Shown here: in pieces, positions 9,875 to 40,296 of the stretch
Position numbering within the stretch: position 1 is the stretch's first letter
Layout of the letters: every line of letters starts with the position of its first letter
Virus record (IMG/VR): IMGVR_UViG_3300021963_000025
Coordinates: 1-64,000 of that record
Reading direction: 5' to 3' (one strand)
Origin: a virus
Lineage: Duplodnaviria > Heunggongvirae > Uroviricota > Caudoviricetes
DNA length: 64,000 nucleotides
Notes under the pieces: generated by a model
Databases searched by the model: none
What the model saw: the letters and a program-made list of their open reading frames with translations, nothing else
What the model was told of the DNA's origin: nothing
Position numbers and translations under genes: made by a program

Positions 9875-9987
9875 GTTAACTTATTTTACAATCGACGATA
9901 CCCAGAGGGTATAAGTCTTGGTTAGAGATTTATTCTTACAAACTCAGTACCTAAAGCTGAGCGGCCAGACAATGGGACTGGCTTTAT

Positions 9988-10060: not shown

Positions 10061-10066
10061 CAACAT

Positions 10067-10139: not shown

Positions 10140-10148
10140 CAACAAATT

Positions 10149-11324: not shown

Positions 11325-12158
11325 ATGAAAAACTTATACTTATTACCGTCGCCAAATCCAAGTAGATTATATTATTTTGGTAGTAGTCCTGAATTGCGAT
11401 TGACAAAATATCCTAACCTATTCAGGGTTTTTGAGAGAAGTACTCAGCATATTTATATTGTTGCAAATGGTAAATTTAGCAGAGACCAATATGTTACAGA
11501 CGGTATTGAAGTAATTAAAGCCAGTCCAAAATTGGTTGATGCACAAGGTTTAATTGATAGAAGAGAATGGAAGAAGATAATCCTAACAACGGATGGGGTT
11601 CTTATTAATGAAGGGGTTCAGTCCATTCCAGAAGAATTCTTAACATGGTTCGTAGAGAATCCTAAATGCGAATCGGTTGAGGTTAATGAAAAGAGCAGAT
11701 GTTGTGGTCGATGTAATGGAATTGATGACCTTTGTTATGTCGATATGTGTTGTGACGACCATCATGTTTATGGATGCGAGACATGTTACGGAAAGAGGGT
11801 AGAATATTTGATAACCATTCCAATTTATTGTACTCAAAAAGAAGAACCTAAAATGAATAAAATACAACAGGAAATATTTGAAATGGAGCAAGAGCTTGAT
11901 GTACCTTCACATTTAAGATGGCACAATTCTAAACCTAAACAAGATATTATAGCTTCTGAAGAGGATGCTAAAATATTTGTTGATGCAATGATTAATCCAC
12001 CAGAGCCGAATGAAAAACTGAAAGAGGCTTTTAAAAATTATAGAAAAGCTGAGCATCAATTAGAATCTGAAATAGAACACCTTATTATAAGATGGAATAA
12101 TGATGGTTCTAGAACTGCAGGTTCATTAGCAAGAGAGATTATAGAATTAATAAAATAG
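11325..12158 (+). CDS. hypothetical cysteine-rich protein
   Basis: 277-aa ORF; central CESVEVNEKSRCCGRCNGIDDLCYVDMCCDDHHVYGCETCYGKR cysteine cluster suggests metal binding. Confidence 0.65.
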   Translation: MKNLYLLPSPNPSRLYYFGSSPELRLTKYPNLFRVFERSTQHIYIVANGKFSRDQYVTDGIEVIKASPKLVDAQGLIDRREWKKIILTTDGVLINEGVQSIPEEFLTWFVENPKCESVEVNEKSRCCGRCNGIDDLCYVDMCCDDHHVYGCETCYGKRVEYLITIPIYCTQKEEPKMNKIQQEIFEMEQELDVPSHLRWHNSKPKQDIIASEEDAKIFVDAMINPPEPNEKLKEAFKNYRKAEHQLESEIEHLIIRWNNDGSRTAGSLAREIIELIK

Positions 12159-16342: not shown

Positions 16343-18679
16343 ATGGCAGTATTCAAATCCACAGTATCAATTGAGTCTGGTACCTCAACATCACAAACAA
16401 AGCTCTCATCGACAGATAACAACAATCTGAACGATGGGGCTATCTTGCGCAAAAAGAAGATTAATTCTACAGTTAACACGGGATTATTTCGCTCAAGTAA
16501 TGCGAGTAGAGGTTCATACATCTATATTAAATCAAGTGCATCAAATCCAAAACATACTGCAATTATGGTAAGTTCAAGAGAGCAGCCGCTTGCAACACTA
16601 TACCCTGGAGAACATGCATTAATTCCACTTTCTAAAGAATTACGCGATCTTAGTGCAATTACTACATACGGAACTGCCGAATTAGAATACTTCTACGGTA
16701 GCCGTGGAGAGGACATGGGAGAGTCTATATTATTAAGTTATAGAGATAGAAATTCTGGTGCTTGGGTATTTTTTACAATGGATGCCGCTACCGGAACCCC
16801 TAGTGGTTTATATGGAACTGGAGTACCTTACGGAGAATATCCAGGCTGTAGCGTTTCTGGATTGGTAAACAATAAAGGATATATTTTACGTTTTAATAGT
16901 GGTGCAGGTGACCGTAATAGACTCTTATTTGTAAATAGTAAGGGACAGGTAATCTATGTTGTAGACATCAATACTAGTTATAATAGTTATTATGGTGGTG
17001 GAAAGGCAAACTTAATAACCTGGATTGGCGAAGGAGGAAATGCAATTTACTTTGATGGAGATAATGTTTACACTCATACATTTGGCAACGTAGGTTCAAT
17101 ATACATTCAAGATAATTGGGATCAATGTACTGCGGACGGAACATTTTCTGTAGTTATTACATCAGTAGAGTCTAGAGATCCGGAATCATTATACTTAATT
17201 AAAGGAGCCTCTAAAAAGCTTATTAAATCCTATAATTCAAATCGCGGATTATATGTAGATTCTTATTTATATTCTTATGCTAATTTTATTGCAGTAGAAA
17301 CAAGGAATCAAAATACAGAAGGTAGAACTCTTGAAATTTATAGTACTAAAGGTACAATTCTTAAAACTGTAGATTTTACAGGAATACGAATTGGAGGTTC
17401 TAATTTCTATTTCTATGGTACAGGTAAGTTACAAATAGTTTATAATGAAATAAATGGTCGTAAAGAACAATTATTTTTAAATTATAATCAAAATACTGGT
17501 AAATTTATCGGAGATGACTTTAAATGGAAATCAACAGAAACCGGTGCTTATGAAGTTATTTGTGATACTTATAGTACAATTTCAGGTAAGAACTACAATC
17601 CAGAATCAATTGCAATCTTAACATACGGTGAAAGTGGAAATAGTGGAACTTACTTTTTAGACACAGAAGTTAAGGGTCTTATTGAAGTAACATATATTAT
17701 CAATAATGACAAGGCTCCAAGAAATTATACAATTGAACCGAGATTTGAAAGAACATGCCACATTTCTACTAAAGCATTTACAAGTGCTGCTGATGTTGTC
17801 TTATTAATTGGAGATTATATAGATGAAGGCGCATTAACTGCAACCCGATTCACTTCAACCGGAGAACCAACAACGTTCACAATTATTCCAGAATTAAAAA
17901 ATTATGATGTGAGTAATATTAAAAATGGTGTTCCGGCTAATTATGGAATTTCTGGAGACTATCATTATATTGATTTTATTTCTAAAATTAAAGGTCGTGA
18001 AAATCTAAGAGACATTATTGTTTTTAATAGCACAAATTTATTAGACAAAGTTTCAGTATACTATGATAATTATAATGGATATAGCGCTTATAATTTAATA
18101 TATGTAGTAGATTGGGACAGTGGTAAATCATGGTACTTCAACACTTCTACTAAAAAAATGGTTCCTTCTGTACAAGATATATGGGACTATTGGACTCCTC
18201 AATATGAAGGTTTAAGAAACTTAAATAATACGGGTATTGTACTTCCAGTAAGATATTTTAATGATAGAACTAATGAAACAATCTATGCAACAGTTATAAA
18301 CCGAGGTGTTTCTGGAAGTGAAAAGGAAATACTAACTTTAAAAAATTCACTAGATGGTGGAATTTATGCGTGGGACTTTATTGTAAGTACTGAAACAATA
18401 GCGTTAGGATATAAACAAAACTGGAATAGTACCTGGAAAGTTAAAGTCTTTGACCTTAGCCTGAATCTATTATATGAAATAGATACTAAAAAACCAAATT
18501 GTAATAGTGTTCTAAGTTCTGGTAAAATAAATAACCATCAATTCAGTGATAGGGATGGAAATTGGACGATTTATAATTTTAACCGATTGTTAAATGTAAA
18601 AGATGTATTGAACAAAGATAATCAATTTACCCAGTTTCTTAACAACAATGGATTCGGTCAAAAAGAAAAAACCAAATAA
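16343..18679 (+). CDS. large Asn/Tyr/Gly-rich protein, putative virion structural or receptor-binding protein (paralogue B)
   Basis: 778 aa; tandem paralogue of CDS 13975-16308. Confidence 0.75.
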   Translation: MAVFKSTVSIESGTSTSQTKLSSTDNNNLNDGAILRKKKINSTVNTGLFRSSNASRGSYIYIKSSASNPKHTAIMVSSREQPLATLYPGEHALIPLSKELRDLSAITTYGTAELEYFYGSRGEDMGESILLSYRDRNSGAWVFFTMDAATGTPSGLYGTGVPYGEYPGCSVSGLVNNKGYILRFNSGAGDRNRLLFVNSKGQVIYVVDINTSYNSYYGGGKANLITWIGEGGNAIYFDGDNVYTHTFGNVGSIYIQDNWDQCTADGTFSVVITSVESRDPESLYLIKGASKKLIKSYNSNRGLYVDSYLYSYANFIAVETRNQNTEGRTLEIYSTKGTILKTVDFTGIRIGGSNFYFYGTGKLQIVYNEINGRKEQLFLNYNQNTGKFIGDDFKWKSTETGAYEVICDTYSTISGKNYNPESIAILTYGESGNSGTYFLDTEVKGLIEVTYIINNDKAPRNYTIEPRFERTCHISTKAFTSAADVVLLIGDYIDEGALTATRFTSTGEPTTFTIIPELKNYDVSNIKNGVPANYGISGDYHYIDFISKIKGRENLRDIIVFNSTNLLDKVSVYYDNYNGYSAYNLIYVVDWDSGKSWYFNTSTKKMVPSVQDIWDYWTPQYEGLRNLNNTGIVLPVRYFNDRTNETIYATVINRGVSGSEKEILTLKNSLDGGIYAWDFIVSTETIALGYKQNWNSTWKVKVFDLSLNLLYEIDTKKPNCNSVLSSGKINNHQFSDRDGNWTIYNFNRLLNVKDVLNKDNQFTQFLNNNGFGQKEKTK

Positions 18680-21011: not shown

Positions 21012-21866
21012 ATGAGATTAAAATCAATTGTAGTAATTTTAGTAGTACTTTTAGGTCTATTAGGAGTTTCAAATTCATGTGAGCGTATTGATGCAGGACA
21101 TGTAGGTGTTAAAGTTAACCTTTACGGAAGTGGAAAAGGTGTAAGCGATGTAACAGAATGTACCGGATTAGTATTTTTCAATCCAATGTCAACCAAGATT
21201 TATGAATTCCCAACGTATGTTCAACATAAAGAGTATAAGAAAACTGATGAGGGAGACAATTCATTCACTGTAAATACTAAAGATGGTTCTGAATTCCATG
21301 TTTCTCCGGTAATTAACTATTCGGTACAACGTGAAAAGGTTCCAACAATATTCTCAAAATACAGAAGAACCCTGCCAGAAATTGAGGAAGGTTTCTTAAA
21401 AACTACTGTATATGATGCGTTCCGACTTGCAACTAATGCGTACACTGCCGAAGAATTAGTGTCTAATAGAGCAAACTTCGAAATCAAAGTAAGAAGCATA
21501 TTGACGGAACAGTTACAGAAGGAAGGATTTATTATTAATACATTTACATCCAACTTAGAATATCCTACGTCATTTAAGAATGCAATTAACGCCAAAAATA
21601 ATACAGTACAAGCAGCGTTACAAGCAGAAAATAAAGTAAAACAGGCAGAAGCAGAGGCAAAAATTAAAATTGCAACAGCAGAAGGTAATGCACAAGCCCT
21701 ATTAACAAATGCAAGAGCAGAAGCAGAGTCAAATAAATTGAGACAATCAACATTAACTCCGATGTTATTACAACAACAATGGATTGAAGCATGGAAACAT
21801 GGAGGTTCTCAAGTTCCTACCTACATTACTAACGGTGGTGAAAAGTTCATGATGAATATAAAATAA
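21012..21866 (+). CDS. SPFH/band-7 (prohibitin-like) domain membrane protein
   Basis: N-terminal TM, then HVGVKVNLYGSGKGVS...VSPVINYSV and a C-terminal Ala/Glu/Gln/Lys-rich coiled coil typical of SPFH proteins. Confidence 0.55.
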   Translation: MRLKSIVVILVVLLGLLGVSNSCERIDAGHVGVKVNLYGSGKGVSDVTECTGLVFFNPMSTKIYEFPTYVQHKEYKKTDEGDNSFTVNTKDGSEFHVSPVINYSVQREKVPTIFSKYRRTLPEIEEGFLKTTVYDAFRLATNAYTAEELVSNRANFEIKVRSILTEQLQKEGFIINTFTSNLEYPTSFKNAINAKNNTVQAALQAENKVKQAEAEAKIKIATAEGNAQALLTNARAEAESNKLRQSTLTPMLLQQQWIEAWKHGGSQVPTYITNGGEKFMMNIK

Positions 21867-27640: not shown

Positions 27641-27676
27641 AAATAAATTGGTAAAAGTTTTACCGATTGAAAACTT

Positions 27677-27705
27677 TTGTTTATATTTACATATAATTAA
27701 AAACC
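27677..27705 (+). promoter_or_regulatory. conserved promoter-like cassette motif
   Basis: ttgtttatatttacatataattaaaaacc upstream of CDS 27715. Confidence 0.5.
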
Positions 27706-27714: not shown

Positions 27715-28584
27715 ATGATAACATTAGACCTTGTTAATCCAGAAAAATCACAAATCAAATACAAAATTAGTCAATTTCCTGACGGTCAACAAACAGTAGA
27801 CCTTACAGATTGGAATGACCTGTTAAGATATGATGATGCTGTGAAAATCAATTCGCGTTTAAATACCTTTAAGGACCTAGAACTGATTATTTGTGCAACT
27901 GCTGCCGTTCGTAATATTAAACCAAACCGCGAAATTGCTCTTTACGTTCCATATTTTATAGGAGCCCGTTCAGACCGTAAATTTGTTGATGGTGGAGTTA
28001 ATTACTTAAAGCAAGTTATTTGCCCAATCATTAATTCCTTAAACTTTGTAACTGTAGTTATATTGGACCCTCATTCAGATGTTTTAGAAGCCTGTTTGAA
28101 TAACTACGAGAAAGTGAATAACCACCTACTTGTAAAACATGCCCTTTCAAAGATTGATAATAAGAATGGTGCACAAGACAGAATTTGTTTAGTTAGCCCG
28201 GATGCCGGAGCCTACAAAAAAATCTTTGATGTTGCTAAGAAGTTTGGAATTGAAAACATTATCACCGCAACCAAAGTGCGAGATATGCGAAGTGGAAACA
28301 TCTTAAGAACTGAGATACCAACACTGAACCAACATGATGACTTAAAATATGTTATCATTGACGATATTTGTGATGGTGGCCGAACATTCATTGAATTAGC
28401 AAAAGCAATCAAAGGGAGTCGACCAACCGCTAAAGTCTACTTAGTAGTAACTCACGGTATTTTTAGTGCTGGATTTGACCAATTAAATCAATACTTTGAA
28501 GGTATTTATACAACTAATTCTTATTCTGATATAAAAGGTACCGCAATTCCTTATCACAAATTAACACAATTTAACGTAATATAA
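27715..28584 (+). CDS. ribose-phosphate pyrophosphokinase (Prs)-like enzyme; candidate ADP-ribose pyrophosphokinase (Adps-like) of an NAD+ reconstitution pathway
   Basis: PRTase type-I PRPP-binding loop YVIIDDICDGGRTF; N-terminal FPDGQ...VDL resembles the Prs FSDGE region; 289 aa, shorter than canonical Prs. Confidence 0.6.
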   Translation: MITLDLVNPEKSQIKYKISQFPDGQQTVDLTDWNDLLRYDDAVKINSRLNTFKDLELIICATAAVRNIKPNREIALYVPYFIGARSDRKFVDGGVNYLKQVICPIINSLNFVTVVILDPHSDVLEACLNNYEKVNNHLLVKHALSKIDNKNGAQDRICLVSPDAGAYKKIFDVAKKFGIENIITATKVRDMRSGNILRTEIPTLNQHDDLKYVIIDDICDGGRTFIELAKAIKGSRPTAKVYLVVTHGIFSAGFDQLNQYFEGIYTTNSYSDIKGTAIPYHKLTQFNVI

Positions 28585-28585
28585 C

Positions 28586-28783
28586 ATGGAAAACAAACCA
28601 AAAACAATATGGGTAGAGCAACTAGTATTAGTACAAGACCCAATTCTAGGTTCTAGATATGAACTACAAATGGTAGAAATAGAAGATACTGATGTTGTTA
28701 CTTCAGTAACACAAACTTTAACTAAAGAGCCTAAAAAGGCACCTAAAAAGGCACCTAAAAAGGCACCTAAAAATGAACAATAG
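28586..28783 (+). CDS. small protein with KAPKKAPKKAPK C-terminal repeat
   Basis: ORF; lysine-rich tripeptide repeats. Confidence 0.5.
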   Translation: MENKPKTIWVEQLVLVQDPILGSRYELQMVEIEDTDVVTSVTQTLTKEPKKAPKKAPKKAPKNEQ

Positions 28784-29270
28784 AGACAATAGAGAATTTA
28801 GAATGTACGGACTTGTTCCGTATAATATTAGTCCAATTCAACAAGGCATCCAGTTCGGTCATGCTGTTGTTGAATATGGGCTCGAGTTCTCTGAAACGCC
28901 AGAGTACCAAACATGGGCTAGAAGAGACAAGACCTTTATGATTATGAATGGAGGCACTACCAACAATACGGCTTTTATCAAAGGTACCCTTAACAATTAT
29001 TCTTTTGAACTAACCGACCGATGTATTCGTGTTGCAGAATTCCACGAACCAGATTTGGGAGACCAATTAACTGCCGTAGTTTTCTTGGTTGATGATAGGG
29101 TATACGATAGGGTAAATTGGCCTAACTATGATGGACCATATTATGCAGATATGATTACCCCAGAGGCGACTGCATATTATGAATGGAAGATGAAGTTTGC
29201 CGAAACTGAAGCGGAAGCAGACCAAATTGTATTCATGAGAGATTTCTTAAAACAATTTAGATTTGCATAA
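28773..29270 (+). CDS. hypothetical protein
   Basis: 165-aa ORF; stop overlaps next start (ATAATG). Confidence 0.6.
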   Translation: MNNRDNREFRMYGLVPYNISPIQQGIQFGHAVVEYGLEFSETPEYQTWARRDKTFMIMNGGTTNNTAFIKGTLNNYSFELTDRCIRVAEFHEPDLGDQLTAVVFLVDDRVYDRVNWPNYDGPYYADMITPEATAYYEWKMKFAETEAEADQIVFMRDFLKQFRFA

Positions 29271-29830
29271 TGAAAAGACAACTTAATGATTTTGTAAAAT
29301 CAGTGATAGAAGTTAACTATCAAGAAATAGAGGGAGACCTAATCAAATTGGCAAAACAGGGTACATTTGATGTAATTACACATGGTTGTAATTGTCTTTC
29401 AAATATGGGTGCCGGAATAGCACCTCAAATGGCAAAAGCATTTGGAGTAGATAAATTTCAAATGGAACTATGGGGTTCAACAATTGGAAAACTTGGATGT
29501 ATCGATTATGAAACATTTGTTATTGGTCAAAACGCAATTTGGTCCCTGGAGGATGCTGATAATAAATTGGGTGAACCGGAATTGGCAGTTGTAAATTCAT
29601 ACACTCAATACCGTTACGGTAAAAACCATACTGATGGAGTTTCAAAACCATTAGACTACGAGGCACTTACGCTTTGTATGCGCAAAATCAATACAACGTT
29701 TAGTGGTAAACATATTGGACTTCCAAAAATTGGAGCCGGACTGGCCGGTGGTGATTGGAATAAGATTAAAAAGATTATTCAAACAGAATTAAAAGACATG
29801 AAAGTGTCAGTAGTAATTTATAAACCTTAA
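29270..29830 (+). CDS. macro domain protein (ADP-ribose binding/processing)
   Basis: HGCNCLSNMGAGIAPQMAKAFG (macro N-x-N...G-x-G motif) and HIGLPKIGAGLAGG (second macro glycine-rich loop). Confidence 0.6.
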   Translation: MKRQLNDFVKSVIEVNYQEIEGDLIKLAKQGTFDVITHGCNCLSNMGAGIAPQMAKAFGVDKFQMELWGSTIGKLGCIDYETFVIGQNAIWSLEDADNKLGEPELAVVNSYTQYRYGKNHTDGVSKPLDYEALTLCMRKINTTFSGKHIGLPKIGAGLAGGDWNKIKKIIQTELKDMKVSVVIYKP

Positions 29831-29833
29831 GAA

Positions 29834-29989
29834 ATGAAAAAAATACTAGGATTATTAGCACCAGCGTGGTTAGGATTTGCATTATCATGCTTCGGTCATG
29901 TTTATTGGTATCAATGGGAATTTTATGCAATTATAGTTCCATTTTACATTTTACAATTAATTGAGAATTCTAATAAAGAGGAAATGTAA
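29834..29989 (+). CDS. small membrane protein (51 aa)
   Basis: Short hydrophobic ORF filling the gap; its stop overlaps the next start. Confidence 0.35.
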   Translation: MKKILGLLAPAWLGFALSCFGHVYWYQWEFYAIIVPFYILQLIENSNKEEM

Positions 29990-30477
29990 TGAAAGTTATT
30001 TTTCTGGACATTGATGGAGTTCTTAATGTAATCCCACAGGGACATGATGCTTACGGTGGAATATTTCATCCTAACTTTGTAGAAAACTTACAAAGAATTA
30101 TTGATGAAACCGGAGCAAAGATAGTTTTAAGTTCATCATGGAGGCACAGTGGTTTAAACAAAATGCTTGCAATGTGGGAGTTTAGAAATCTACCAGGAGA
30201 ATTAATTGGAGTAACACCAGACCTTTATAGATTTTTAGATTTTGAAGGACAAAGAACAATGGTTCGCGGAGATGAAATACAGGCAATTCTTAATAAACAT
30301 CCCGAGATAACAAATTATGTTATTCTTGATGATGACACTGACATGTTACCAAATCAAATGGGAAATTTTGTCTGCTGTTCAAATAATATTAACCATCCAG
30401 ATTGTATTGACATTGGATATGGTTTAACAAATGAATGCACAAATAAAGCAATAAGAATTTTAAATAGAGAAAAATGA
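29989..30477 (+). CDS. HAD-superfamily hydrolase/phosphatase
   Basis: N-terminal FLDIDGVLN (DxDG motif I); paralogue of CDS 39721-40296. Confidence 0.55.
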   Translation: MKVIFLDIDGVLNVIPQGHDAYGGIFHPNFVENLQRIIDETGAKIVLSSSWRHSGLNKMLAMWEFRNLPGELIGVTPDLYRFLDFEGQRTMVRGDEIQAILNKHPEITNYVILDDDTDMLPNQMGNFVCCSNNINHPDCIDIGYGLTNECTNKAIRILNREK

Positions 30478-30950
30478 GAGTAACAGATAAATTTGTATTT
30501 TTTTGGAATGGAATCTATTCCCAATGGCATTTAGCCCCAATGACAATAGGTAAAATTGAGTACAATTCATGTGAACAATACATGATGCACCAAAAGGCCC
30601 TACTATTTGGAGATGACGAGATTGCAGAATTAATCATACAAGAGGAGAATCCTAGAGAGCAAAAGAAATACGGTCGAATGATTAGAGGTTTCGACAAAGC
30701 AACTTGGGACAAAAATTGTTTGGCAATAGTATATGAAGGAAACTTGGCAAAGTTCACACAAAATGAAGACCTTAAAGCCGCACTACTATTGACAGGAGAC
30801 AGAATTATGGTTGAAGCATCTCCACTTGATAATATTTGGGGAATTGGACTAGACGAAAATGCTGAAGGTATTGAAGACCCATCATACTGGTTAGGTTTAA
30901 ACCTTCTAGGACAGGCAATTACACTTGTTAAAGGTCAATTAATGCCGTAA
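30474..30950 (+). CDS. NADAR-domain protein (YbiA-like; ADP-ribose/N-glycoside processing)
   Basis: FFWNGIYSQW, CEQYMMHQKALLF, TWDKNC, NLAKFTQNEDLKAALLLTG, VEASPLDNIWGIG align to E. coli YbiA signature blocks. Confidence 0.75.
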   Translation: MRVTDKFVFFWNGIYSQWHLAPMTIGKIEYNSCEQYMMHQKALLFGDDEIAELIIQEENPREQKKYGRMIRGFDKATWDKNCLAIVYEGNLAKFTQNEDLKAALLLTGDRIMVEASPLDNIWGIGLDENAEGIEDPSYWLGLNLLGQAITLVKGQLMP

Positions 30951-30996
30951 CTTTAACATAAATTTAACACTTTAAAGTTTTACCGTGTAAAACTTA

Positions 30997-31026
30997 TTGT
31001 TTATATTTACATATTAATTTAAAACA
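30997..31026 (+). promoter_or_regulatory. conserved promoter-like cassette motif
   Basis: ttgtttatatttacatattaatttaaaaca upstream of CDS 31034. Confidence 0.5.
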
Positions 31027-31033
31027 TATTAAA

Positions 31034-31789
31034 ATGAATAGAAAAGAAACCTTAATAAAAGGTCTAAGAACCGCAATTGATGCATTGAAAAATGACACAA
31101 TCAATTACAACTGGAATAACCAATGTTCATGTAACATGGGAGTTGTAGCGCAAGCAGTATTGGAACTTAGTTTTGATGAACTTAAACAGTTAAACAAAGA
31201 ACTTTTTAAACCTATAGACTCACTTAATAAAAAACGTAAAGAAGATGGTAAAGATAGAATTATGCCATCTTGGAAGAACGCTGTAAAATATGCATGTCCT
31301 ATTACTGGTAAAGATATGCCGGAAATTATCAATATTCTTGAGAGCAAGGGTATGAGTCGTGCAGATATCGTACATTTAGAGTTCTTAGAGAATCCAGCAA
31401 TTCTAGAGTTAAGTAGTATTAAAAAGATTGAAACTGTAACGTCAGTTCAAACAGGAACTGAAACCAAAGAATATCCAACAACACATTGGTTTTGGAAATA
31501 TTTTGGACACACTGAAAAGGTAGAAGTACCAATATATGAGCATTCAACCGCTTATGCGTACCCTACGGATTACTATCAACACAAAGAAAATGTTATCCTA
31601 TATCTTTCTGCTTGGTTGAATATCTTAACGAATGAAAATCTTGAAATCAAGGTTAAAGATACGAATGACTCTCGTAAGGAGGCTTCGATTAACTTAGAGA
31701 AAGAATTACTACATGCAGTAGCTGATGAAAATTTTGAAAGAGCCGCAGAGTTAAGAGATGCAATTGCTAAGAACTTAATAACTATATAA
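31034..31789 (+). CDS. hypothetical protein with C-terminal UVR (UvrB/UvrC-like) motif
   Basis: C-terminal LEKELLHAVADENFERAAELRDAIAKNL matches the UVR domain signature. Confidence 0.55.
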   Translation: MNRKETLIKGLRTAIDALKNDTINYNWNNQCSCNMGVVAQAVLELSFDELKQLNKELFKPIDSLNKKRKEDGKDRIMPSWKNAVKYACPITGKDMPEIINILESKGMSRADIVHLEFLENPAILELSSIKKIETVTSVQTGTETKEYPTTHWFWKYFGHTEKVEVPIYEHSTAYAYPTDYYQHKENVILYLSAWLNILTNENLEIKVKDTNDSRKEASINLEKELLHAVADENFERAAELRDAIAKNLITI

Positions 31790-32364
31790 TGAGTAGAACA
31801 GAATTTCACACCGGAAAATTATACCCAGTCAAAATTGAAACCAACCTAGAGGAAACTTGTAGAAGTATTGCGAACCGACATGGAGTTGAATTAGGTGAGG
31901 ATTGGCAAGAAGACTTTAGAGACTCTTTTGATGAGTACACCAATAAAAAAAGAAGTCAACCTGAGGAGTATTTTATCCACGGAGAGAAACTTTATAGAGT
32001 TATCGACCATGTAGAATCTGAAGATGAAGAGTACTTTATGAAATTGTCCCGAAATAGTGACGGAAGCATTTCATTTATGGGACAATTCTATAATGGAGGC
32101 ACATGTTTCTCTGAAATGTTGGAAGAGTCCTTAGACGAACTAAAACCATCTTATATAGACCAATTGAAGGCGACTGTTGATGAGATTATAGATAAACATA
32201 ACGAACAGGCTCCAATCACAGTTCCGGCCGCTGCAACATTAATTATGAAGTATCATGGCCGCGATGTTGCAAGAGAATTATTCAGTGGAGTATGCGAGGA
32301 ATACAAAAATGATGTATTTAAGTCTTCAGCGTATCAAGCAACTCTGCAAACTGTTATAAAATAA
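31789..32364 (+). CDS. hypothetical protein
   Basis: 191-aa ORF, stop-start overlap. Confidence 0.6.
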   Translation: MSRTEFHTGKLYPVKIETNLEETCRSIANRHGVELGEDWQEDFRDSFDEYTNKKRSQPEEYFIHGEKLYRVIDHVESEDEEYFMKLSRNSDGSISFMGQFYNGGTCFSEMLEESLDELKPSYIDQLKATVDEIIDKHNEQAPITVPAAATLIMKYHGRDVARELFSGVCEEYKNDVFKSSAYQATLQTVIK

Positions 32365-32437
32365 ACAAAATAAAAGTATTCTATATAATACACATAACCA
32401 GCATCCAACTAACGGCGGTTGCACAAATCCATATATT

Positions 32438-33262
32438 ATGAAAAATGACGCATTAGGCGACAGAATGAAAGAGTTCTATGAGGATAGAACCCGAATCAAA
32501 CTCCCAAGGAGAACCTACACAATTATCCGTATCGACGGAAAGGCATTTCACACCTACACGAAAGGCTTACAACGACCATTTGATGATGGACTTATTGAAG
32601 ACATGAATGCAACTACTGCATATCTTTGTAAGAATATCCAAGGTGCTAAGTTCGGTTATGTTCAATCCGATGAGATTAGTCTTGTTCTAACAGACTTTGA
32701 TGAACTTGGAACTCATGCTTGGTTTGACAATAATCTGCAGAAAATGGTAAGTGTTGCAGCTTCTATGGCAACTTCTGAATTTAATCGTTTAAGATTAATA
32801 AGAGCATGTAACGATAACATGGGAGATTATATTGAAAACTTATTAACCGAGAATGAAATTCAAAAATTCAGAATGGCAGAATTCGATGCCAGAGCTTTTC
32901 AAATTCCATTTATCGATGAGGTTGAAAACTATTTTATTTGGAGACAACAAGATGCTGTACGAAATAGTATCTCTTCAGTTGCACAAAGTCTTTATAGTAC
33001 TAAAGAACTACATGGAGTTAAAACCGATGGTATGCAAGAGTTGATTTTCCAAAAGGGAATCAATTGGAATGACTATGATTTTCGCAAGAAAAGAGGTGCT
33101 GTAATTGCTAAAGTAGAAACAACTTTAATTAAAACAATACAAGGTCCAAACGAAGAAGTAATTGAAACTGAATTTACCAGAAACAAATGGCAAGTTGTAG
33201 AAACACCAACATTCACACAAGACCGAGAATTTATTAAAGGACTATTAAAAACTTTAACATAA
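32438..33262 (+). CDS. Thg1-like protein (tRNA-His guanylyltransferase family; tRNA 5'-end repair/editing)
   Basis: IRIDGKAFHTYTKGLQRPFD and YVQSDEISLVL match Thg1 catalytic blocks (VVRLDGRNFHRF...KPND; YGQSDEYSFVF). Confidence 0.7.
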   Translation: MKNDALGDRMKEFYEDRTRIKLPRRTYTIIRIDGKAFHTYTKGLQRPFDDGLIEDMNATTAYLCKNIQGAKFGYVQSDEISLVLTDFDELGTHAWFDNNLQKMVSVAASMATSEFNRLRLIRACNDNMGDYIENLLTENEIQKFRMAEFDARAFQIPFIDEVENYFIWRQQDAVRNSISSVAQSLYSTKELHGVKTDGMQELIFQKGINWNDYDFRKKRGAVIAKVETTLIKTIQGPNEEVIETEFTRNKWQVVETPTFTQDREFIKGLLKTLT

Positions 33263-33296
33263 ATTTAACACTTTAAAGTTTTACCGATTCAAATGA

Positions 33297-33325
33297 ATTG
33301 ATTATATTTACATTATAATTAAAAC
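33297..33325 (+). promoter_or_regulatory. conserved promoter-like cassette motif
   Basis: ttgattatatttacattataattaaaaca upstream of CDS 33335. Confidence 0.5.
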
Positions 33326-33334
33326 AGATAAACT

Positions 33335-33577
33335 ATGACAGAATTAGAAAAATGGCAACTAGTTAATCAATGCGAAACTCCATTGGAACTAGAAAATGCA
33401 ATTGCAATGTTTGCCGATTCAGAAGGGATGATACAAGGCCGCGACAGAAAATTCCAAGCAGCCAAAATGATTATTGGCCTTCATTATTTTATGACCGACG
33501 AAATGCCAGCTAACGTTCTTACCAGAGAATATGGTATTAGACAACACGCAATTTATTTAAGAACTTTTAACAAATAA
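33335..33577 (+). CDS. hypothetical protein
   Basis: ORF. Confidence 0.55.
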   Translation: MTELEKWQLVNQCETPLELENAIAMFADSEGMIQGRDRKFQAAKMIIGLHYFMTDEMPANVLTREYGIRQHAIYLRTFNK

Positions 33578-33580
33578 AAT

Positions 33581-34156
33581 ATGAACTGGTTTAAAAAATT
33601 ATTCGGAATTAAAGAGGTAGAATCTAAAACTACAAAAATGCCCGTAGAGACTTTACGTAAAGCGAGCGAAGACTGGAAAAAATCAAAAGAGGCACAACAA
33701 AGAAGCACTTATAGACCTGCTAGGTATAATTCAACTGCTGCAAACCGAGTTGCAACTAATAACTCAAATGATGATTTTGCAACCTCAATGTTAGTTGCAC
33801 AAATGACCGATTCTGCCATATTAGGTTATGCTGCAGGCGGAAATATGGCCGGAGCAATGTTAGGAGATATGATGAATGATTCTGACAACACCTCTAGAGA
33901 TTCAATTGATAATACAAATGAAAGTCATCACTCACACGGAAGTGACTCTAGTGATTATGGGCATAGTTCTGATTCAACATCTTATGATTCCGGTAGCTCT
34001 TATGATTCTGGCAGTTCGTACGATTCTGGCTCTTCAAGCTCTTACGATTCTGGTAGCTCTTATGACTCTGGCTCTTCAAGTTCTTATGATTCTGGTAGCT
34101 CTTATGACTCTGGAAGTTCATACGATTCTGGTAGTTCAAGTTCTAGCGACTGGTAA
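33581..34156 (+). CDS. low-complexity Ser/Tyr/Asp/Gly repeat protein
   Basis: C-terminal third is (SYDSGSS)n encoded by tandem 21/27-nt DNA repeats. Confidence 0.55.
   Translation: MNWFKKLFGIKEVESKTTKMPVETLRKASEDWKKSKEAQQRSTYRPARYNSTAANRVATNNSNDDFATSMLVAQMTDSAILGYAAGGNMAGAMLGDMMNDSDNTSRDSIDNTNESHHSHGSDSSDYGHSSDSTSYDSGSSYDSGSSYDSGSSSSYDSGSSYDSGSSSSYDSGSSYDSGSSYDSGSSSSSDW
33955..34140 (+). repeat. tandem nucleotide repeats encoding SYDSGSS(SS) units
   Basis: Repeated tcttatgattctggtagctct / tcttacgattctggtagctct units visible. Confidence 0.6.
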
Positions 34157-34210
34157 TTGTTAATAACTTTCCAAAAATAAATTGAAAAAAGTTTTCGGTT
34201 TTAAAAAACA

Positions 34211-34240
34211 TTGATTATATTTACATATCAAAATTTAAAC
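34211..34240 (+). promoter_or_regulatory. conserved promoter-like cassette motif
   Basis: ttgattatatttacatatcaaaatttaaac upstream of CDS 34251. Confidence 0.5.
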
Positions 34241-34250
34241 AAATAACATT

Positions 34251-35720
34251 ATGAATCCATTATTTTTAACAGACGGTTACAAAACAGGACATCACCAACA
34301 ATATCCAAAAGGAACAACGTTGGTTTATTCAAATTTTACTCCTCGTAGTAATAAATATGCCCCTAAAGGATGCGACCAATTAGTAAGTTTCGGCCAACAA
34401 ATGGTAATGAAACAAATCCACGAGGCTTTTGAAAAAGATTTCTTTAGCAGACCAAAAGATGAGGTTTGTGGAGAAATGAAAAGAGAATTGTCGATGTATT
34501 TAAACACTGGCTATGATGTTAGCCACTTTGAAGCACTACATGATTTGGGTTACTTACCAATCGCAGTAAAATCAATTGAGGAAGGGTCTATCGTACCAAT
34601 GAAGGTACCTGTCTTGACAATTTACAATACACATCCAGATTTCTATTGGGTAACAAATTACTTAGAGACAGTAATCTCTAACTTGTTATGGAAACCAATG
34701 ACCAGCGCAACTATCTCTCACGCTTACCGTAAATTATTTACATCTTGGCAAGAAAAAACCGATGCTGAAAAAGGTTGGTTCGTAGATTGGCAAGCCCATG
34801 ATTTCTCAATGAGAGGTATGGACTCTATAGATGCTACAATCTCTTCAGGTTTGGGTCACTTAACAAGCTTCTCTGGTTCTGATAGTTTACCTGCAATCTT
34901 TGGAGCCAGAAAATTCTACAACGAAGAAGGATTTGTATCCGGTTCGGTAAATGCAACAGAGCACTCTGTAATGTGTGCTGGAAGTAAAGACGATGAGATT
35001 GGAACCTTCCGTAGATTATTGGAGACATATCCAACAGGAATTCTTTCAGTAGTTTCTGATACATGGGACTTATGGAAAGTTTGTACTGAACATGTTGTTA
35101 CCTTAAAAGAGGAAATTCTTGCAAGAGAAGGTAAATTGGTTATTCGTCCTGACTCAGGAGATCCGGTAGATATTATCTGTGGATATAATACAGATGGAGG
35201 ATTTTATTCAGAAATAGAAACTGCTGAACCATCATACAAAGGTGTTATTGAACTACTTTGGGACGTATTTGGTGGAACTATCAACGAACAAGGTTACAAA
35301 GTTCTAGACTCTCATATTGGAGCAATCTATGGAGACAGTATTACATTAGACCGTGCTGAACAAATCTTCCAAAGATTAGAGGCAAAAGGATTTGCAAGTA
35401 CAAACATTGTATTAGGGGTTGGAAGTTTTACATACCAATATAACACTAGAGATACATTTGGTTTTGCAATGAAAGCCACTTATGTAGAAATTGATGGAGT
35501 TGGTAGAGAAATCTTTAAAGACCCAATCACTGATGATGGTGTTAAAAAATCTGCTAAAGGTTTATTAAGAGTTGCTGGAGATGAAACATGTTTCTTATTA
35601 GAAGACCAATGTACTTGGGAACATGAAGCAACTGGTAAGTTAAAAACTATCTATTTGAATGGTCAATTTGAAAACCAAACAACTCTTACAGAAATTAGAA
35701 AACGTTTAACTAATCAATAA
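34251..35720 (+). CDS. nicotinamide phosphoribosyltransferase (NAMPT/NadV) family enzyme; alternatively Namat-like nicotinamide-ADPR transferase
   Basis: N-terminal LTDGYKTGHHQQYP parallels the NAMPT ATDSYKVTHYKQYP block; 489 aa, within NAMPT range. Confidence 0.7.
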   Translation: MNPLFLTDGYKTGHHQQYPKGTTLVYSNFTPRSNKYAPKGCDQLVSFGQQMVMKQIHEAFEKDFFSRPKDEVCGEMKRELSMYLNTGYDVSHFEALHDLGYLPIAVKSIEEGSIVPMKVPVLTIYNTHPDFYWVTNYLETVISNLLWKPMTSATISHAYRKLFTSWQEKTDAEKGWFVDWQAHDFSMRGMDSIDATISSGLGHLTSFSGSDSLPAIFGARKFYNEEGFVSGSVNATEHSVMCAGSKDDEIGTFRRLLETYPTGILSVVSDTWDLWKVCTEHVVTLKEEILAREGKLVIRPDSGDPVDIICGYNTDGGFYSEIETAEPSYKGVIELLWDVFGGTINEQGYKVLDSHIGAIYGDSITLDRAEQIFQRLEAKGFASTNIVLGVGSFTYQYNTRDTFGFAMKATYVEIDGVGREIFKDPITDDGVKKSAKGLLRVAGDETCFLLEDQCTWEHEATGKLKTIYLNGQFENQTTLTEIRKRLTNQ

Positions 35721-36001
35721 TGAATAAGAAAAACCTACCTCTATTCATATTAATTCTGGCAGCACTAGTAATCTTTATGGTTACTAGTTGCAAGCCAGAA
35801 AACTATGAAAAATATGATTTTAATTCACCAACTTCCGGGCGTTATGAATTGGATAGTACTTCACAATATTACGACCGACAATATAAAGTCTATACTCTTG
35901 AAGGTTGTGAATATATTATAGTAGATGTTGGTAATGGGAAATGGGGTTCTCATAAAGGAAATTGTAAAAATCCAATACACAAAGAAAATGCAAGTAATTA
36001 A
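35720..36001 (+). CDS. small lipoprotein
   Basis: LFILILAALVIFMVTSC signal peptide with lipobox. Confidence 0.5.
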   Translation: MNKKNLPLFILILAALVIFMVTSCKPENYEKYDFNSPTSGRYELDSTSQYYDRQYKVYTLEGCEYIIVDVGNGKWGSHKGNCKNPIHKENASN

Positions 36002-36455
36002 ACCAAATAGTAAGTTTCAAAAAGTAGAAAATGAATGCTCCGTATTTTTAGCAGGTTCTATAGAAATGGGAAAAGCAGAAGATTGGCAAAAGAGAATCGA
36101 GAACAATTACATTAATACCAATGTAACACTTTACAATCCAAGACGTGATGATTGGGATTCAAGCTGGACTCAAGAACAATCAAATCCTCAATTCAACCAA
36201 CAAGTAAACTGGGAAATGAATAGTCTTGAAAGGGCAGACATAATCTTCATGTACTTCTCTCCAGAAACTAAGAGTCCAATTAGTCTTCTAGAACTTGGGT
36301 TACATGCAAACGATAACATTATTGTCTGTTGTCCAGAAGGATTTTGGCGAAAGGGAAATGTCGATATTGTTTGTACTAGATATGGAATTCCATTATTTGA
36401 AAATCTAGATGATGCTATTGGAGCCCTAACCACAAAAATAAATCAAAAACTTTAA
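35988..36455 (+). CDS. nucleoside 2-deoxyribosyltransferase-like protein
   Basis: CSVFLAGSI, conserved acidic residues, ISLLELG and IIVCCPE blocks fit the NDT/DNPH1-like Rossmann fold; start moved to ATG 35988 to avoid deep overlap. Confidence 0.5.
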   Translation: MQVIKPNSKFQKVENECSVFLAGSIEMGKAEDWQKRIENNYINTNVTLYNPRRDDWDSSWTQEQSNPQFNQQVNWEMNSLERADIIFMYFSPETKSPISLLELGLHANDNIIVCCPEGFWRKGNVDIVCTRYGIPLFENLDDAIGALTTKINQKL

Positions 36456-36468
36456 CATAATTTTAACA

Positions 36469-36496
36469 CTCCAGATTTTACCGTCTGGAGTTTTTT
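36469..36496 (+). terminator. rho-independent terminator
   Basis: ctccaga-ttttaccg-tctggag followed by TTTTTT. Confidence 0.6.
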
Positions 36497-36523
36497 GTTT
36501 ATATTTACATTATAATTAAAACA
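36495..36523 (+). promoter_or_regulatory. conserved promoter-like cassette motif
   Basis: ttgtttatatttacattataattaaaaca upstream of CDS 36533. Confidence 0.5.
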
Positions 36524-36532: not shown

Positions 36533-37273
36533 ATGGCAAAAATATTTAAAGTTGGAGGTTGTATCAGGGATAAATTCCTTGGACTGGACTCTAAAGATAT
36601 AGATTTTACTTTCGTATTGGAAGACACTAAAGGTTTTACGGTTGAGGATGGTTTTCAAATCATGACCAATTGGATGACGGACCAAGGGTTTGAAATCTTC
36701 TTAAGTACTCCGGACTGTTTTACTATTCGTGCTAAGTTTCCAAAAGACCATCAGTTCGCTGGACTGGTTGCAGACTTTGTAATGGCCCGTAAAGAGGTTG
36801 GATATGTTGAAGGAACCCGTAGACCTATCCTAGAACTTGGTACTCTTGAAGACGATTTGGTTCGTAGAGATTTTACCCTAAACGCTCTTGCAGAGGACAT
36901 TGATGGTAATCTTATTGACCTATTCGGTGGAGTAGAAGACTTGAAGGCTGGAATCTTGAGAACTCCATTAGATGCTAAGACTACAATGATGGACGACCCA
37001 TTGAGAATCTTAAGAGCTCTTAGATTTACCATCACTAAAGATTTTCAAATGAGCATGGATATATGGGATGCGATGAAACAACCTAAAATTCTAGAGAAAC
37101 TGGAACAAACTGTAAGTGGAGAGAGAATCAGAGAGGAAATCATAAAAATGATGAAACATGATACTCCAAGAAGTTTTAGATTGCTTTCTGATGTTGACCA
37201 AGATATTCCAGGATTCTTAGATTTAATCTTTAAAAATGGCATGTGGTTGAAACCAACTTTCGAAAAAATATAA
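36533..37273 (+). CDS. tRNA nucleotidyltransferase/poly(A) polymerase head-domain protein (CCA-adding-type, minimal)
   Basis: GGCIRDKFLGL...DIDFTF matches the class II CCA-enzyme GGxVRD...DxD head motif; 246 aa (short). Confidence 0.6.
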   Translation: MAKIFKVGGCIRDKFLGLDSKDIDFTFVLEDTKGFTVEDGFQIMTNWMTDQGFEIFLSTPDCFTIRAKFPKDHQFAGLVADFVMARKEVGYVEGTRRPILELGTLEDDLVRRDFTLNALAEDIDGNLIDLFGGVEDLKAGILRTPLDAKTTMMDDPLRILRALRFTITKDFQMSMDIWDAMKQPKILEKLEQTVSGERIREEIIKMMKHDTPRSFRLLSDVDQDIPGFLDLIFKNGMWLKPTFEKI

Positions 37274-37887: not shown

Positions 37888-38292
37888 ATGACTAGAATAT
37901 ACTTAGATGACGTAAGAACTCCAGTTGACAATGATTGGATTGTTGTTAGAAGCTACGAGGAATTTGTAGAGAAAGTTACCGAAATTGGATTAGAAAACAT
38001 TGATTTGATTTCTTTGGACCATGACTTAGGAGACACTGCGATGCAAGAATGGCACCGTAATGTATATCACAATTATGAATTAAATTATGATAACATTGAA
38101 GAGAAGACTGGAATGGATTGCACTAAATGGTTGGTCAATCAATGGTTGGATGGAGCTCCTGTTGTTGATGTTGTAATACACTCTGCCAACGCAATCGGTA
38201 GTGCCAACATGATGGGTTACATTAATAACTACAGACATGTAAATAGATTGCCACAGAATTGCATCCGTGTTAGAATCGAGCACACTGTATAG
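37888..38292 (+). CDS. hypothetical protein, possible divergent receiver-like (cREC-type) domain
   Basis: IYLDDVR...SLDHDLGD pattern; weak recollection of the cyclic-phosphate-processing receiver domain described in RNA-repair loci. Confidence 0.5.
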   Translation: MTRIYLDDVRTPVDNDWIVVRSYEEFVEKVTEIGLENIDLISLDHDLGDTAMQEWHRNVYHNYELNYDNIEEKTGMDCTKWLVNQWLDGAPVVDVVIHSANAIGSANMMGYINNYRHVNRLPQNCIRVRIEHTV

Positions 38293-39720: not shown

Positions 39721-40296
39721 ATGAAAACAATTTTTCTGGATAATGACGGAGTAATCTGCCTCTACAATAACTGGGGAGGTCGAGCAAAGAAATGGAGCAA
39801 GTACACTAAACTTAATCCAGGCCAGACCAGTCTAGCGCTTGCACCAGTAGACATACGTTTTGATAACTTTGACGAAAAAGCAGTTAAGGTATTAAACCAA
39901 ATCCTGGAAGAGACTGGAGCCGAAATCGTTGTAAGTTCGGACTGGAGGTTGCATGCAACCCTTGAAGAACTTGGAGAATACTACTTGGCAAAAGGAATCT
40001 TGAAGGCTCCAATCGCATTCACTAAAAGATATATTGGTTGTGATAAACCAGACGAATTTGAATGGTCCAGAAGAACTATGTACGAACAACAGCGATGTAT
40101 TGAAGTTCGACAATATTTAATTGACCATCCAGAAATCACACACTGGGTTTGTATTGATGACCTAGAACTTGGAGAGTCGGACAATTATGGAAATGTACAT
40201 GAATGGGGTTTGAAAAACTTTGTATGGACTCCAAACGAGAAAGAGGGAATTAAACAACAAGGAATTAAAGATAGAGTACTACAATTTTTAAAATAA
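39721..40296 (+). CDS. HAD-superfamily hydrolase (paralogue of 29989-30477)
   Basis: FLDNDGVI motif I; similar length and layout to CDS 29989. Confidence 0.55.
   Translation: MKTIFLDNDGVICLYNNWGGRAKKWSKYTKLNPGQTSLALAPVDIRFDNFDEKAVKVLNQILEETGAEIVVSSDWRLHATLEELGEYYLAKGILKAPIAFTKRYIGCDKPDEFEWSRRTMYEQQRCIEVRQYLIDHPEITHWVCIDDLELGESDNYGNVHEWGLKNFVWTPNEKEGIKQQGIKDRVLQFLK

Follow-up and report, generated by a model that had tools for sequence, protein, structure and literature searches.

A predicted NARP1-AP locus with linked NADAR and deoxyribosyltransferase-like genes in an uncultured tailed phage

Introduction

To deplete NAD+ (nicotinamide adenine dinucleotide) is among the commonest bacterial anti-phage strategies, and the NARP1 pathway is the main known viral answer to it. 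Here we analyse the first 64 kb (the whole stretch, hereafter the window) of IMG/VR record IMGVR_UViG_3300021963_000025, a virus of the Caudoviricetes, in which positions 27715-36455 encode a predicted NARP1 locus together with further putative ADP-ribose (ADPR)-processing proteins.

NARP1 is composed of two enzymes, Adps and Namat (Osterman et al. 2024, bioRxiv 10.1101/2024.02.11.579819; structures in PMC12774641 and PMC13586617). Two accessory enzymes have been found to extend its reach: Adpp, which handles aRES products, and RyDEP, which handles cyclic ADPR signals. Adpp of Vibrio phage Gary dephosphorylates ADPR-1''-phosphate, an aRES product, and thereby frees ADPR for NARP1; a Poa1p-like macro gene of this kind is carried within the operon by 15% of NARP1 phages (bioRxiv 10.64898/2026.01.28.702374), and the Adps-Adpp-Namat arrangement of Gary is known as NARP1-AP. 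RyDEP is presented, in the part of its report consulted (bioRxiv 10.64898/2026.05.28.727677), as a RyR-domain glycosidase that converts 2'/3'cADPR (cyclic ADPR) into ADPR.

The same enzyme pair is encoded on bacterial chromosomes, by bacterial NARP1 (PMC12774641) and by the nrtR-prs-nadV operons listed by Rodionov et al. (2008, PMC2330246), who defined NrtR, a Nudix-related protein that represses NAD+ genes, and found it unexpected that these operons have a prs paralogue of their own. NrtR senses ADPR according to studies cited in the survey of Iyer et al. (2022). In some phages, as the same survey pointed out, NADAR genes lie close to NadV. A phage NADAR protein of T4, AdfN, is described as an anti-DarT1 factor in the consulted part of its report (PMC11257639).

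The core enzymes

The window has a GC content of about 35%, carries nearly all of its long open reading frames (ORFs) on the + strand and looks like an early or auxiliary region of a large phage. No near-identical DNA to the 8.7-kb region was found by megablast among 50,697 phage records, and the phage is without a close cultured relative. The original prediction had proposed an NAD+/ADPR gene cluster built around five ORFs; all five were found on the + strand at the expected coordinates in the ORF list, and Pfam and PHROG scans agreed with the domains proposed for them. The profile searches that it suggested returned Pribosyltran, NAPRTase, NADAR and Nuc_deoxyri_tr2, whereas Pfam Macro stayed under its gathering score.

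27715-28584, + strand, predicted Adps, PRPS-like, 289 amino acids (aa) (Pribosyltran 7.5e-08, phrog_619 1.8e-67)
29270-29830, + strand, Macro protein, Adpp/Poa1p homologue, 186 aa (phrog_335 8.8e-42)
30474-30950, + strand, NADAR protein, predicted N-glycosidase/ADP-ribosylglycohydrolase (Pfam 2.5e-48), last gene of predicted transcription unit U1
34251-35720, + strand, predicted Namat, Nampt-like (NAPRTase 3.5e-40, plus NAMPT_N)
35988-36455, + strand, protein like nucleoside 2-deoxyribosyltransferase (NDT-like), DNPH1/MilB/NDT fold (PF15891; Nuc_deoxyri_tr2 6.4e-34, above gathering score)

Sequence comparison and synteny make it likely that this locus is a NARP1-AP core accompanied by accessory feeder enzymes, laid out in two predicted units within an early-type region of tRNA and RNA-repair genes.

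Judged by its sequence, the 27715 protein is an Adps and not a true Prs. It falls under every NCBIfam Prs cut-off (82.9 bits against a cut-off of 113 for TIGR01251, and 33-68 bits against cut-offs of 296-536 for the Prs equivalog models) and is therefore not a Prs by this curated criterion, while its BLASTP scores reach 114-146 bits to the Adps proteins of ICP1, Bas62 and Chazly21 versus 50 bits to E. coli Prs. Adps of ICP1 has a published structure and activity (PMC13586617); the ATP donor is bound by a remodelled PP loop and a beta-hairpin (ICP1 C215-S220 region), which are common to Adps proteins. We aligned the 27715 protein with ICP1 Adps, Bas62 Adps and E. coli Prs. Its PP loop and next helix read DDICDGGRTFIELAKA, which Bas62 Adps shares but for the last residue, versus DDMIDTGGTLCKAAEA in E. 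coli Prs. The donor loop is DDICDGGRTF in both the window protein and Bas62 Adps, DDICDGAASF in ICP1 and DDMIDTGGTL in E. coli Prs, and the hairpin KVRDmrsGnIlrteI follows the pattern A-x-K-V/I-R-D-x3-G-x-I and is Adps-like, not Prs-like.

The ICP1 residues in contact with the ADPR adenine, F18, R87 and F92, align with F21, R85 and F90 of the window protein, F92 being absent from both Bas62 and Prs, and the acceptor and catalytic residues H121, D161, K185, D212 and D213 align with H120, D163, K187, D216 and D217; several of the other contact residues are common to Prs too. Of the Prs regulatory elements whose absence the original prediction had proposed to examine, the C-terminal alpha11-alpha12 helices have no counterpart in the alignment (289 aa, compared with 315 aa in E. 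coli Prs). The predicted reaction is the transfer of the beta,gamma-pyrophosphate of ATP onto ADPR, yielding ADPR pyrophosphate (ADPR-PP) and AMP.

The Adps family is widespread in phages, with 1,465 matching records. The closest Adps of a cultured phage (46% identity) is that of Leptolyngbya phage Lbo-JY46 (locus L089, 4817-9026), where the gene order is Namat, two uncharacterised genes and Adps, followed by a glutamine amidotransferase, a gamma-glutamyl cyclotransferase and an ATP-grasp protein.

The 34251 protein is, on alignment scores and motifs, a Namat, far nearer to the solved Namat than to Nampt. A phmmer search against the PDB gave 523.7 bits (3e-156) to 9W5X/9W5W, which is the SpβL1 Namat according to the depositors' paper, as compared with 230.9 bits for the Nampt of Xanthomonas (7yqo) and about 205 bits for the human enzyme; the separation of Namat from Nampt rests on these PDB scores and on motifs. 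Equivalents of the catalytic SpβL1 residues F189, D215 and R306 are kept in HDFSMRG, FSGSDS and VIRPDSGD. A clamp helix with the consensus GS-X-Φ-X-Φ-X-Φ-TRD, where X is aromatic, is described as a feature of Namat that Nampt lacks, and GSFTYQYNTRD of the window protein fits it exactly and does not differ from SpβL1, so that F392 and Y396, which stack on the adenine, are included. In the selectivity-clamp loop (SCL), which has Arg, Lys or Tyr in its third position, sequence alignment places K35 opposite R40, followed by Y36, and this pair would fit the published rule that a Lys or Tyr in the third position leaves the stacking to the next residue. Namat is predicted to convert ADPR-PP and nicotinamide into NAD+. 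The original prediction had offered either a NARP1-type pathway or classic salvage by Prs plus NadV; the Adps features, the failed Prs cut-offs and the Namat clamp bear out the former and speak against the latter.

The window resembles NARP1 in its Adps loop and contact residues, in its Namat clamp and in the placement of both genes on one strand; no Nmnat turned up among the window ORFs scanned. It differs in that the two genes lie 5.7 kb and about 11 ORFs apart and do not form an adjacent two-gene operon, and in that the proteins are 32-48% identical to characterised members.

The macro protein and NARP1-AP

Pfam Macro gave 16.7 bits on the 29270 protein, and the macro assignment was secured by phrog_335, by PDB matches to the macro-like BT1257 (1.5e-9) and, along the whole protein, to yeast Poa1p (6LFU, 3e-4, residues 20-181; also 6LFQ) and by 47% identity to Cellulophaga phage proteins annotated as macro domain. 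The protein shares 32% identity (E 3e-17) with Chazly21 gp177, a Vibrio phage protein whose gene sits between Adps and Namat. Both Chazly21 and Gary are members of the genus Thalassavirus, and the comparison with Gary was made through gp177. The 29270 protein is, by sequence, homologous to Adpp, membership of the family being in itself no proof of Adpp activity. The suggestion in the original prediction that the macro domain acts on ADPR derivatives therefore stood and can be sharpened to homology with Adpp through Poa1p and Chazly21 gp177.

With Adps, Namat and an Adpp homologue, the core of the locus corresponds to NARP1-AP, a system already described. As in Gary, a Poa1p-like macro gene lies between Adps and Namat; unlike in Gary, it comes third after Adps, behind a gene for a PTH2-fold protein, and the window cluster adds HAD, NADAR and NDT-like genes to the described three-gene operon. 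During infection, a host NADase would cleave NAD+ into ADPR and nicotinamide, from which Adps and then Namat would rebuild NAD+, while the Macro protein would turn ADPR-1''-phosphate, the product of aRES-type NAD+ cleavage, into ADPR. NADAR, the NDT-like protein and perhaps the HAD_SAK_2 proteins could be further feeders, stripping N-linked adducts or extra phosphates so that ADPR re-enters the pathway, as their synteny suggests.

NADAR, NDT-like and HAD_SAK_2 proteins

The NADAR protein scores 164.9 bits against a Pfam cut-off of 35.1. Its best PDB match is a Phytophthora NADAR that strips ADP-ribose from guanine (8BAU, 1.3e-14), E. coli YbiA reaching only 2e-3. In the alignment E34 and K41 fall on the 8BAU motif SEQY..K, and their spacing equals that of the catalytic E36 and K43 of AdfN. 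The anti-DarT role that the original prediction suggested would have a precedent in AdfN. AdfN, which shares the NADAR fold and this Glu/Lys spacing, is encoded by T4-like phages, and the consulted part of its report describes no NARP1 context, whereas the window NADAR is embedded in a NARP1 cluster. A YbiA-type riboflavin housekeeping function was considered and rejected: the protein passes the YbiA-type model TIGR02464, yet is much nearer to 8BAU than to YbiA.

For the NDT-like protein, start 35988 is favoured over the upstream ATG at 35925, since homologue alignments open at M-Q/K-V/I-IKP. The AlphaFold2 model has a predicted local distance difference test score (pLDDT) of 90. Among its invariant motifs are NPRR and LELG, and the E102 of LELG, unchanged throughout both alignments, is a candidate nucleophile. 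When the alignment profile was searched against the PDB, the sole match was the uncharacterised structure 4mcj. The protein is a predicted N-glycosidase and, from its gene neighbourhoods, a conserved neighbour of NARP1. According to the Iyer et al. survey, viruses hold only cyclase-type members of this superfamily. A literature search returned no paper tying NARP1 to a deoxyribosyltransferase-like protein or to KptA/Tpt1, and a single co-mention of NrtR and NARP1; the link between the NDT-like protein and NARP1 appears to be undescribed so far.

RyDEP offers the nearest parallel for such an accessory enzyme fuelling NARP1. Its fold is unrelated, and the portion of the report consulted describes no conserved operon with Adps and Namat. 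No RyR-type domain turned up in general scans of the window ORFs, no search aimed at RyR having been made.

The original prediction had also placed two HAD phosphatases in the locus. Both are real and both are HAD_SAK_2 proteins, that is, of RNA-repair type, the second lying outside the interval given for the cluster.

29989-30477, + strand, HAD1, HAD_SAK_2 phosphatase (Pfam 4e-26)
39721-40296, + strand, HAD2, HAD_SAK_2 phosphatase (Pfam 2.8e-19)

HAD1 had no sequence match in the PDB. Several related loci carry HAD_SAK_2 genes directly 3' of the NDT-like gene, and in several relatives the gene so placed is a homologue of HAD2.

Conserved linkage in viral loci

To follow these genes across viruses, 80 IMG/VR loci were fetched through Namat and 80 through the NDT-like alignment, from pools of 315 and 484 matches respectively, and all window proteins were mapped onto them. 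Lineages were defined as Namat clusters at 85% identity, of which 35 had enough flanking DNA. The number of these 35 lineages in which each protein was found is as follows.

Adps, 35
NDT-like, 27
Macro, 14
HAD, 11
NADAR, 10
CCA-adding enzyme, 9
PTH2-like, 5
Thg1-like, 4

In none of the 35 evaluable lineages is Adps more than 10 kb away from Namat, and the two are frequently adjacent, the spacing in the window being looser than in characterised operons. The count for the NDT-like protein (27/35) is inflated because the pooled set is partly NDT-anchored; the Namat-anchored set has the protein in 56 of its 80 loci, which corresponds to about two thirds of lineages. Conversely, Namat lies within 10 kb in 47 of the 49 viral loci that were anchored on NDT and had 5 kb or more of sequence on either side, and both core genes do so in 43. 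The gene orders seen include Adps-NDT-Namat, Adps-Namat-NDT, Adps-Macro-NDT-Namat, Adps-Macro-NADAR-Namat-NDT and NDT-Namat-Adps, and Namat is down to 45-55% identical to the window protein in some of the linked loci. That the linkage is kept through changes in gene order and through such divergence argues for selection over inertia.

Operons on bacterial chromosomes

When one genome per species was scanned with the NDT-like alignment, 80 bacterial loci were obtained. Adps and Namat are both found within 5 kb in 19 of them, 13 of which hold NADAR as well; NrtR occurs in 19 and KptA in 13 of the 80, in close overlap with the loci that have Adps and Namat. The contigs concerned include some of 1.5-1.8 Mb in Chitinophaga rupis, C. 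agrisoli and a Flavobacterium metagenome-assembled genome (MAG) and 0.65 Mb in Ferruginibacter. The C. rupis operon consists of NrtR, Namat, NADAR, KptA/Tpt1, NDT-like and Adps, and that of the Flavobacterium MAG of NrtR, Adps, two successive NADAR genes, KptA, Metallophos, DUF4291, NDT-like, Namat, Macro and an ADP-ribosylglycohydrolase (ARH). NrtR stands directly 5' of the cluster in both operons examined.

KptA uses up NAD+ and yields nicotinamide and ADPR-1'',2''-cyclic phosphate. The operons therefore gather makers and processors of ADPR derivatives around the two enzymes that lead from ADPR to NAD+, and they look like ADPR-regulated ADPR-recycling operons. The NrtR-headed operons at loci L166 (3148-11583) and L170 (4619-9249) carry Adps, Namat, NADAR (sometimes two), KptA/Tpt1 and NDT-like, to which L166 adds Metallophos, DUF4291, Macro and ADP-ribosylglycohydrolase.

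The NADAR and NDT-like genes of these Bacteroidota operons are homologous to those of the window, and published descriptions of the bacterial operons name only prs and nadV. Unlike the operons, the phage is without NrtR and KptA/Tpt1 and has its own repeated promoter-like motif; neither KptA nor NrtR was found in the phage window or in 149 viral loci. The phage set of Adps, Macro, NADAR, NDT-like and Namat is a subset of the bacterial one. NADAR is thus found inside NARP1 clusters of both phages and bacteria, and NADAR and NDT-like are, as far as synteny tells, conserved partners of the Adps/Namat pair. The original prediction had seen in the combination with NDT-like, NADAR and HAD a possible extended pathway, which the phage and bacterial synteny supports. 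The phage probably infects Bacteroidota, to judge from its low GC content, from the kinship of its macro protein with proteins of Cellulophaga phages and from the Bacteroidota operons.

What is new here is the linkage of NDT-like and NADAR to Adps/Namat across divergent phages and Bacteroidota operons, and it is plausible that the extended gene set is a new variant of NARP1. The two proteins are concrete candidates for further feeder reactions, which would imply that hosts use forms of NAD+ cleavage or ADPR conjugation not yet known. The linkage could also explain why these operons have a separate prs paralogue, which was a puzzle in 2008, and suggests that chromosomal NARP1 may have a physiological role in recycling ADPR by-products of Tpt1 and of ADP-ribosyl hydrolases. 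Should the accessory genes be unrelated to NARP1, the locus would be one more NARP1-AP in an uncultured phage.

Weighing the evidence

Several points weigh against a NARP1-AP core with feeders. Every function assigned here rests on homology and synteny. The genes for Adps and Namat probably belong to different transcription units, whereas the characterised NARP1 genes are adjacent. The Nampt comparators were the Xanthomonas and human enzymes and not a NARP2-type phage Nampt such as KVP40 NadV, and published Namat retains the synthesis of nicotinamide mononucleotide (NMN) from phosphoribosyl pyrophosphate (PRPP) in vitro, so that some classic salvage could take place. The macro family is frequent in T4-like phages, where it lies beside tk/vs genes and not beside NARP1 genes, and for this reason the Adpp assignment rests on homology together with position. 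Some of the loci behind the pooled synteny counts were anchored on NDT, and there is relatedness among the viral loci. Finally, the NDT-like loci of phages CcrColossus, Xanthomonas X1 and Alishewanella Slicko01 and 61 of the 80 bacterial NDT-like loci have no NARP1 nearby; the idea that the NDT-like protein is an obligate part of NARP1 was rejected on these grounds.

A broader interpretation, which we put forward tentatively and hold to be somewhat less probable than its converse, is that NARP1 is the core of a larger, undescribed ADPR-recycling module with NDT-like and NADAR feeders, of Bacteroidota origin and captured by phages. The feeders may act beside the macro phosphatase, and perhaps HAD, to turn N-linked or otherwise modified ADPR derivatives into ADPR; their substrates may include N7-cADPR, His-ADPR, ADP-ribosyl-guanine, the ADPR cyclic phosphate derived from Tpt1 and damaged pyridine dinucleotides. 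Such a module may have arisen as an NrtR-regulated Bacteroidota operon with KptA/Tpt1, ARH, Metallophos and DUF4291, and its capture by phages may have widened the range of NAD+-targeting defences that they undo.

It is rather unlikely, although a serious competitor, that Macro, NADAR, HAD_SAK_2, NDT-like and cyclic-phosphate-processing receiver (cREC) proteins are independent early tools of host takeover which share their timing with NARP1 and do not feed it. Their roles could then be the clean-up of RNA-repair by-products, the removal of DarT-type DNA ADP-ribosylation by NADAR, in the manner of AdfN, or the destruction of ADPR-based immune signals. The window does encode an RNA ligase, a 2H/Acb1-like protein, 24 tRNAs, Thg1-like, CCA-adding, PTH2-fold and cREC proteins and the two RNA-repair-type HADs; according to the Iyer et al. 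survey, Macro and NADAR genes of phages occur in early regions along with RNA-repair genes; AdfN is, in the part of its report consulted, a proven anti-DarT1 enzyme; and the NDT-like gene lies away from NARP1 in the three cultured phages named above. Against this, NDT-like and NADAR remain only a few kb away from Adps/Namat despite reordering and with Namat only 45-55% identical, and bacterial chromosomes also have them in Adps/Namat operons headed by NrtR, where the timing of phage genes plays no part. Feeders and independent tools are not mutually exclusive, because every listed reaction would release ADPR.

We consider it improbable that the NDT-like protein is a (d)NMP N-glycosidase like DNPH1/Rcl or MilB, serving nucleotide or DNA-modification metabolism without a role in NAD+ turnover. 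The subfamily nearest to the window protein neighbours Namat in 47/49 evaluable viral loci, and in the NrtR-headed operons the gene accompanies Adps, Namat, NADAR and KptA and no nucleotide-metabolism partner.

Classic salvage, in which the Prs-like protein would supply PRPP, the Nampt-like protein would make NMN and a host or other Nmnat would finish the pathway (a NARP2-like system or auxiliary metabolism), is very improbable: both proteins do belong to the Prs and Nampt superfamilies, the 34251 protein passes NF006629 at 553 bits, published Namat keeps the PRPP-to-NMN activity in vitro mentioned above and an Nmnat could lie elsewhere, the window being 64 kb of a roughly 200-kb genome, but the Prs-like protein fails all Prs cut-offs and has the Adps donor loop and ADPR-contact residues, the Nampt-like one has the Namat-only clamp and is nearer to Namat than to Nampt by about 290 bits, neither an Nmnat nor a CTP_transf_like or Nudix match was found among the window ORFs scanned, which were 60 of those of at least 100 aa (about two thirds of the genome lying outside the window), and NARP1 and NARP2 did not occur together in any phage of a published survey, Nampt-clade genes being seen in phages without Adps.

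Transcription signals and layout of the locus

A 29-nt motif, TTTACCG..T......TTG.TTATATT, has 11 exact copies on the + strand of the window versus 1.4 expected, with starts at 4804, 13263, 19691, 19976, 21905, 27659, 30979, 33280, 36477, 37833 and 48665. The distance from the end of the motif to the ATG is 27-28 nt in the five copies checked (gene starts 27715, 31034, 33335, 36533 and 37888), and the motif is probably a phage-specific promoter or regulatory element. The TTTACC...TATATT repeat surfaced in a sigma-70 scan and was then tested separately. Sigma-70 promoters themselves were rejected as evidence, the scan having given 53 hits versus 58.5 in shuffles, without enrichment.

27659-27687, + strand, promoter-like motif, ends 28 nt 5' of the Adps start and opens predicted U1
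28586-28783, + strand, 65-aa ORF with a basic KKAP-repeat tail, directly 3' of Adps in 13 of 80 related loci
28773-29270, + strand, PTH2-fold protein, beside the macro gene in most relatives
29834-29989, + strand, 51-aa hydrophobic ORF, kept in 11 of 80 related loci
30979-31007, + strand, promoter-like motif, precedes predicted U2
31034-33262, + strand, predicted U2 genes, not assigned to the NAD+ pathway
33280-33308, + strand, promoter-like motif, precedes predicted U3
33335-34156, + strand, 80-aa and 191-aa proteins, first two U3 genes (ORF list)
35720-36001, + strand, 93-aa protein with a lipoprotein-like N-terminus, between Namat and NDT-like in 19 of 80 loci
36468-36491, + strand, terminator-like hairpin and T-run (9-bp stem, 4 GC pairs, TTTTTTGTTT tail), closes predicted U3

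From these signals we infer a unit U1 with Adps, the 65-aa ORF, PTH2-fold, Macro, the 51-aa ORF, HAD1 and NADAR; a unit U2 with a UVR-motif protein, a 191-aa protein and the Thg1-like protein; and a unit U3 with the 80-aa ORF, a Ser-rich protein, Namat, the lipoprotein-like ORF and NDT-like. U4 would open with the CCA-adding enzyme and U5 with the cREC protein. The NAD+ genes are thus split over predicted U1 and U3, with the Thg1-like unit between them, and the hairpin after the NDT-like gene overlaps the next promoter-like motif (36477-36505). The 80-aa gene is directly 5' of Namat in 20 related loci. The 191-aa protein encoded just 5' of Namat (33581-34156) has a low-complexity C-terminal half made of a Ser/Tyr/Asp/Gly repeat (SSYDSGSSYDSG...); a Pfam scan gave no match, and this Ser/Tyr/Asp-rich protein is weakly conserved in six relatives.

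tRNA, RNA-repair and other genes

Genes for tRNA maturation or repair are interleaved in the interval and were overlooked by the original prediction, which mentioned neither the PTH2-fold, Thg1-like, CCA-adding and cREC proteins in or beside it nor several small ORFs.

32438-33262, + strand, Thg1-like tRNA-His guanylyltransferase (Pfam Thg1 1.3e-28, phrog_4717 2.4e-85)
36533-37273, + strand, CCA-adding tRNA nucleotidyltransferase (PolyA_pol 8.1e-18, phrog_24229 7e-58)
37888-38292, + strand, cREC protein (PF20274 9.3e-22), in 18 of 80 related loci

The window holds 24 tRNA genes at 4696-10140, for 19 amino acids plus Met, interspersed with HNH and NUMOD3 homing-endonuclease-like ORFs (9218-9874 and 10370-10882). 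Its tRNA-His (GTG, 9105-9181) has an A73 discriminator before an encoded CCA, with a G at -1 in the DNA. A73 is a eukaryote-like discriminator, typical of a tRNA-His that relies on Thg1 for G-1. A place for the Thg1-like, CCA-adding and PTH2-fold proteins in the NAD+ pathway was rejected in view of the 24 tRNAs, of A73 and of their presence in only 4-9 of the 35 lineages; they most likely serve tRNA maturation or repair, not NAD+ metabolism. For the 28773 protein, sequence searches of the PDB gave chance crystallin matches only, and structure prediction points to its PTH2 fold. The same protein recurs unchanged in ENA and JGI metagenome assemblies, the longest contig of its cluster measuring 199,669 bp. 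A 277-aa protein (11325-12158) has a weak TacA-like antitoxin domain match, which together with the PTH2-fold protein hints at a defence against tRNA-acetylating toxins.

The cREC family is predicted to process ADPR derivatives (Iyer et al. 2022), and the window protein is a possible processor of ADPR or RNA-end derivatives. In related phages it is up to 99% conserved near the NARP1 cluster. Lying 5' of the tRNA array, an RNA ligase (PHA02142-type, 198-1322) and a 2H phosphoesterase with a weak match to Acb1 (anti-CBASS) and 2',5'-RNA ligase (2454-3020) are candidates for RNA repair or signal degradation.

Elsewhere, the window encodes two Metallophos proteins and two adjacent ORFs at 13975-16308 (777 aa) and 16343-18679 (778 aa), which have no Pfam match and may be paralogues. 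Auxiliary genes unusual for a phage include an M42 glutamyl aminopeptidase (55532-56638, 1.7e-71), an SPFH/Band_7 protein (21012-21866) and a class-I glutamine amidotransferase/peptidase C26 (41077-41667).

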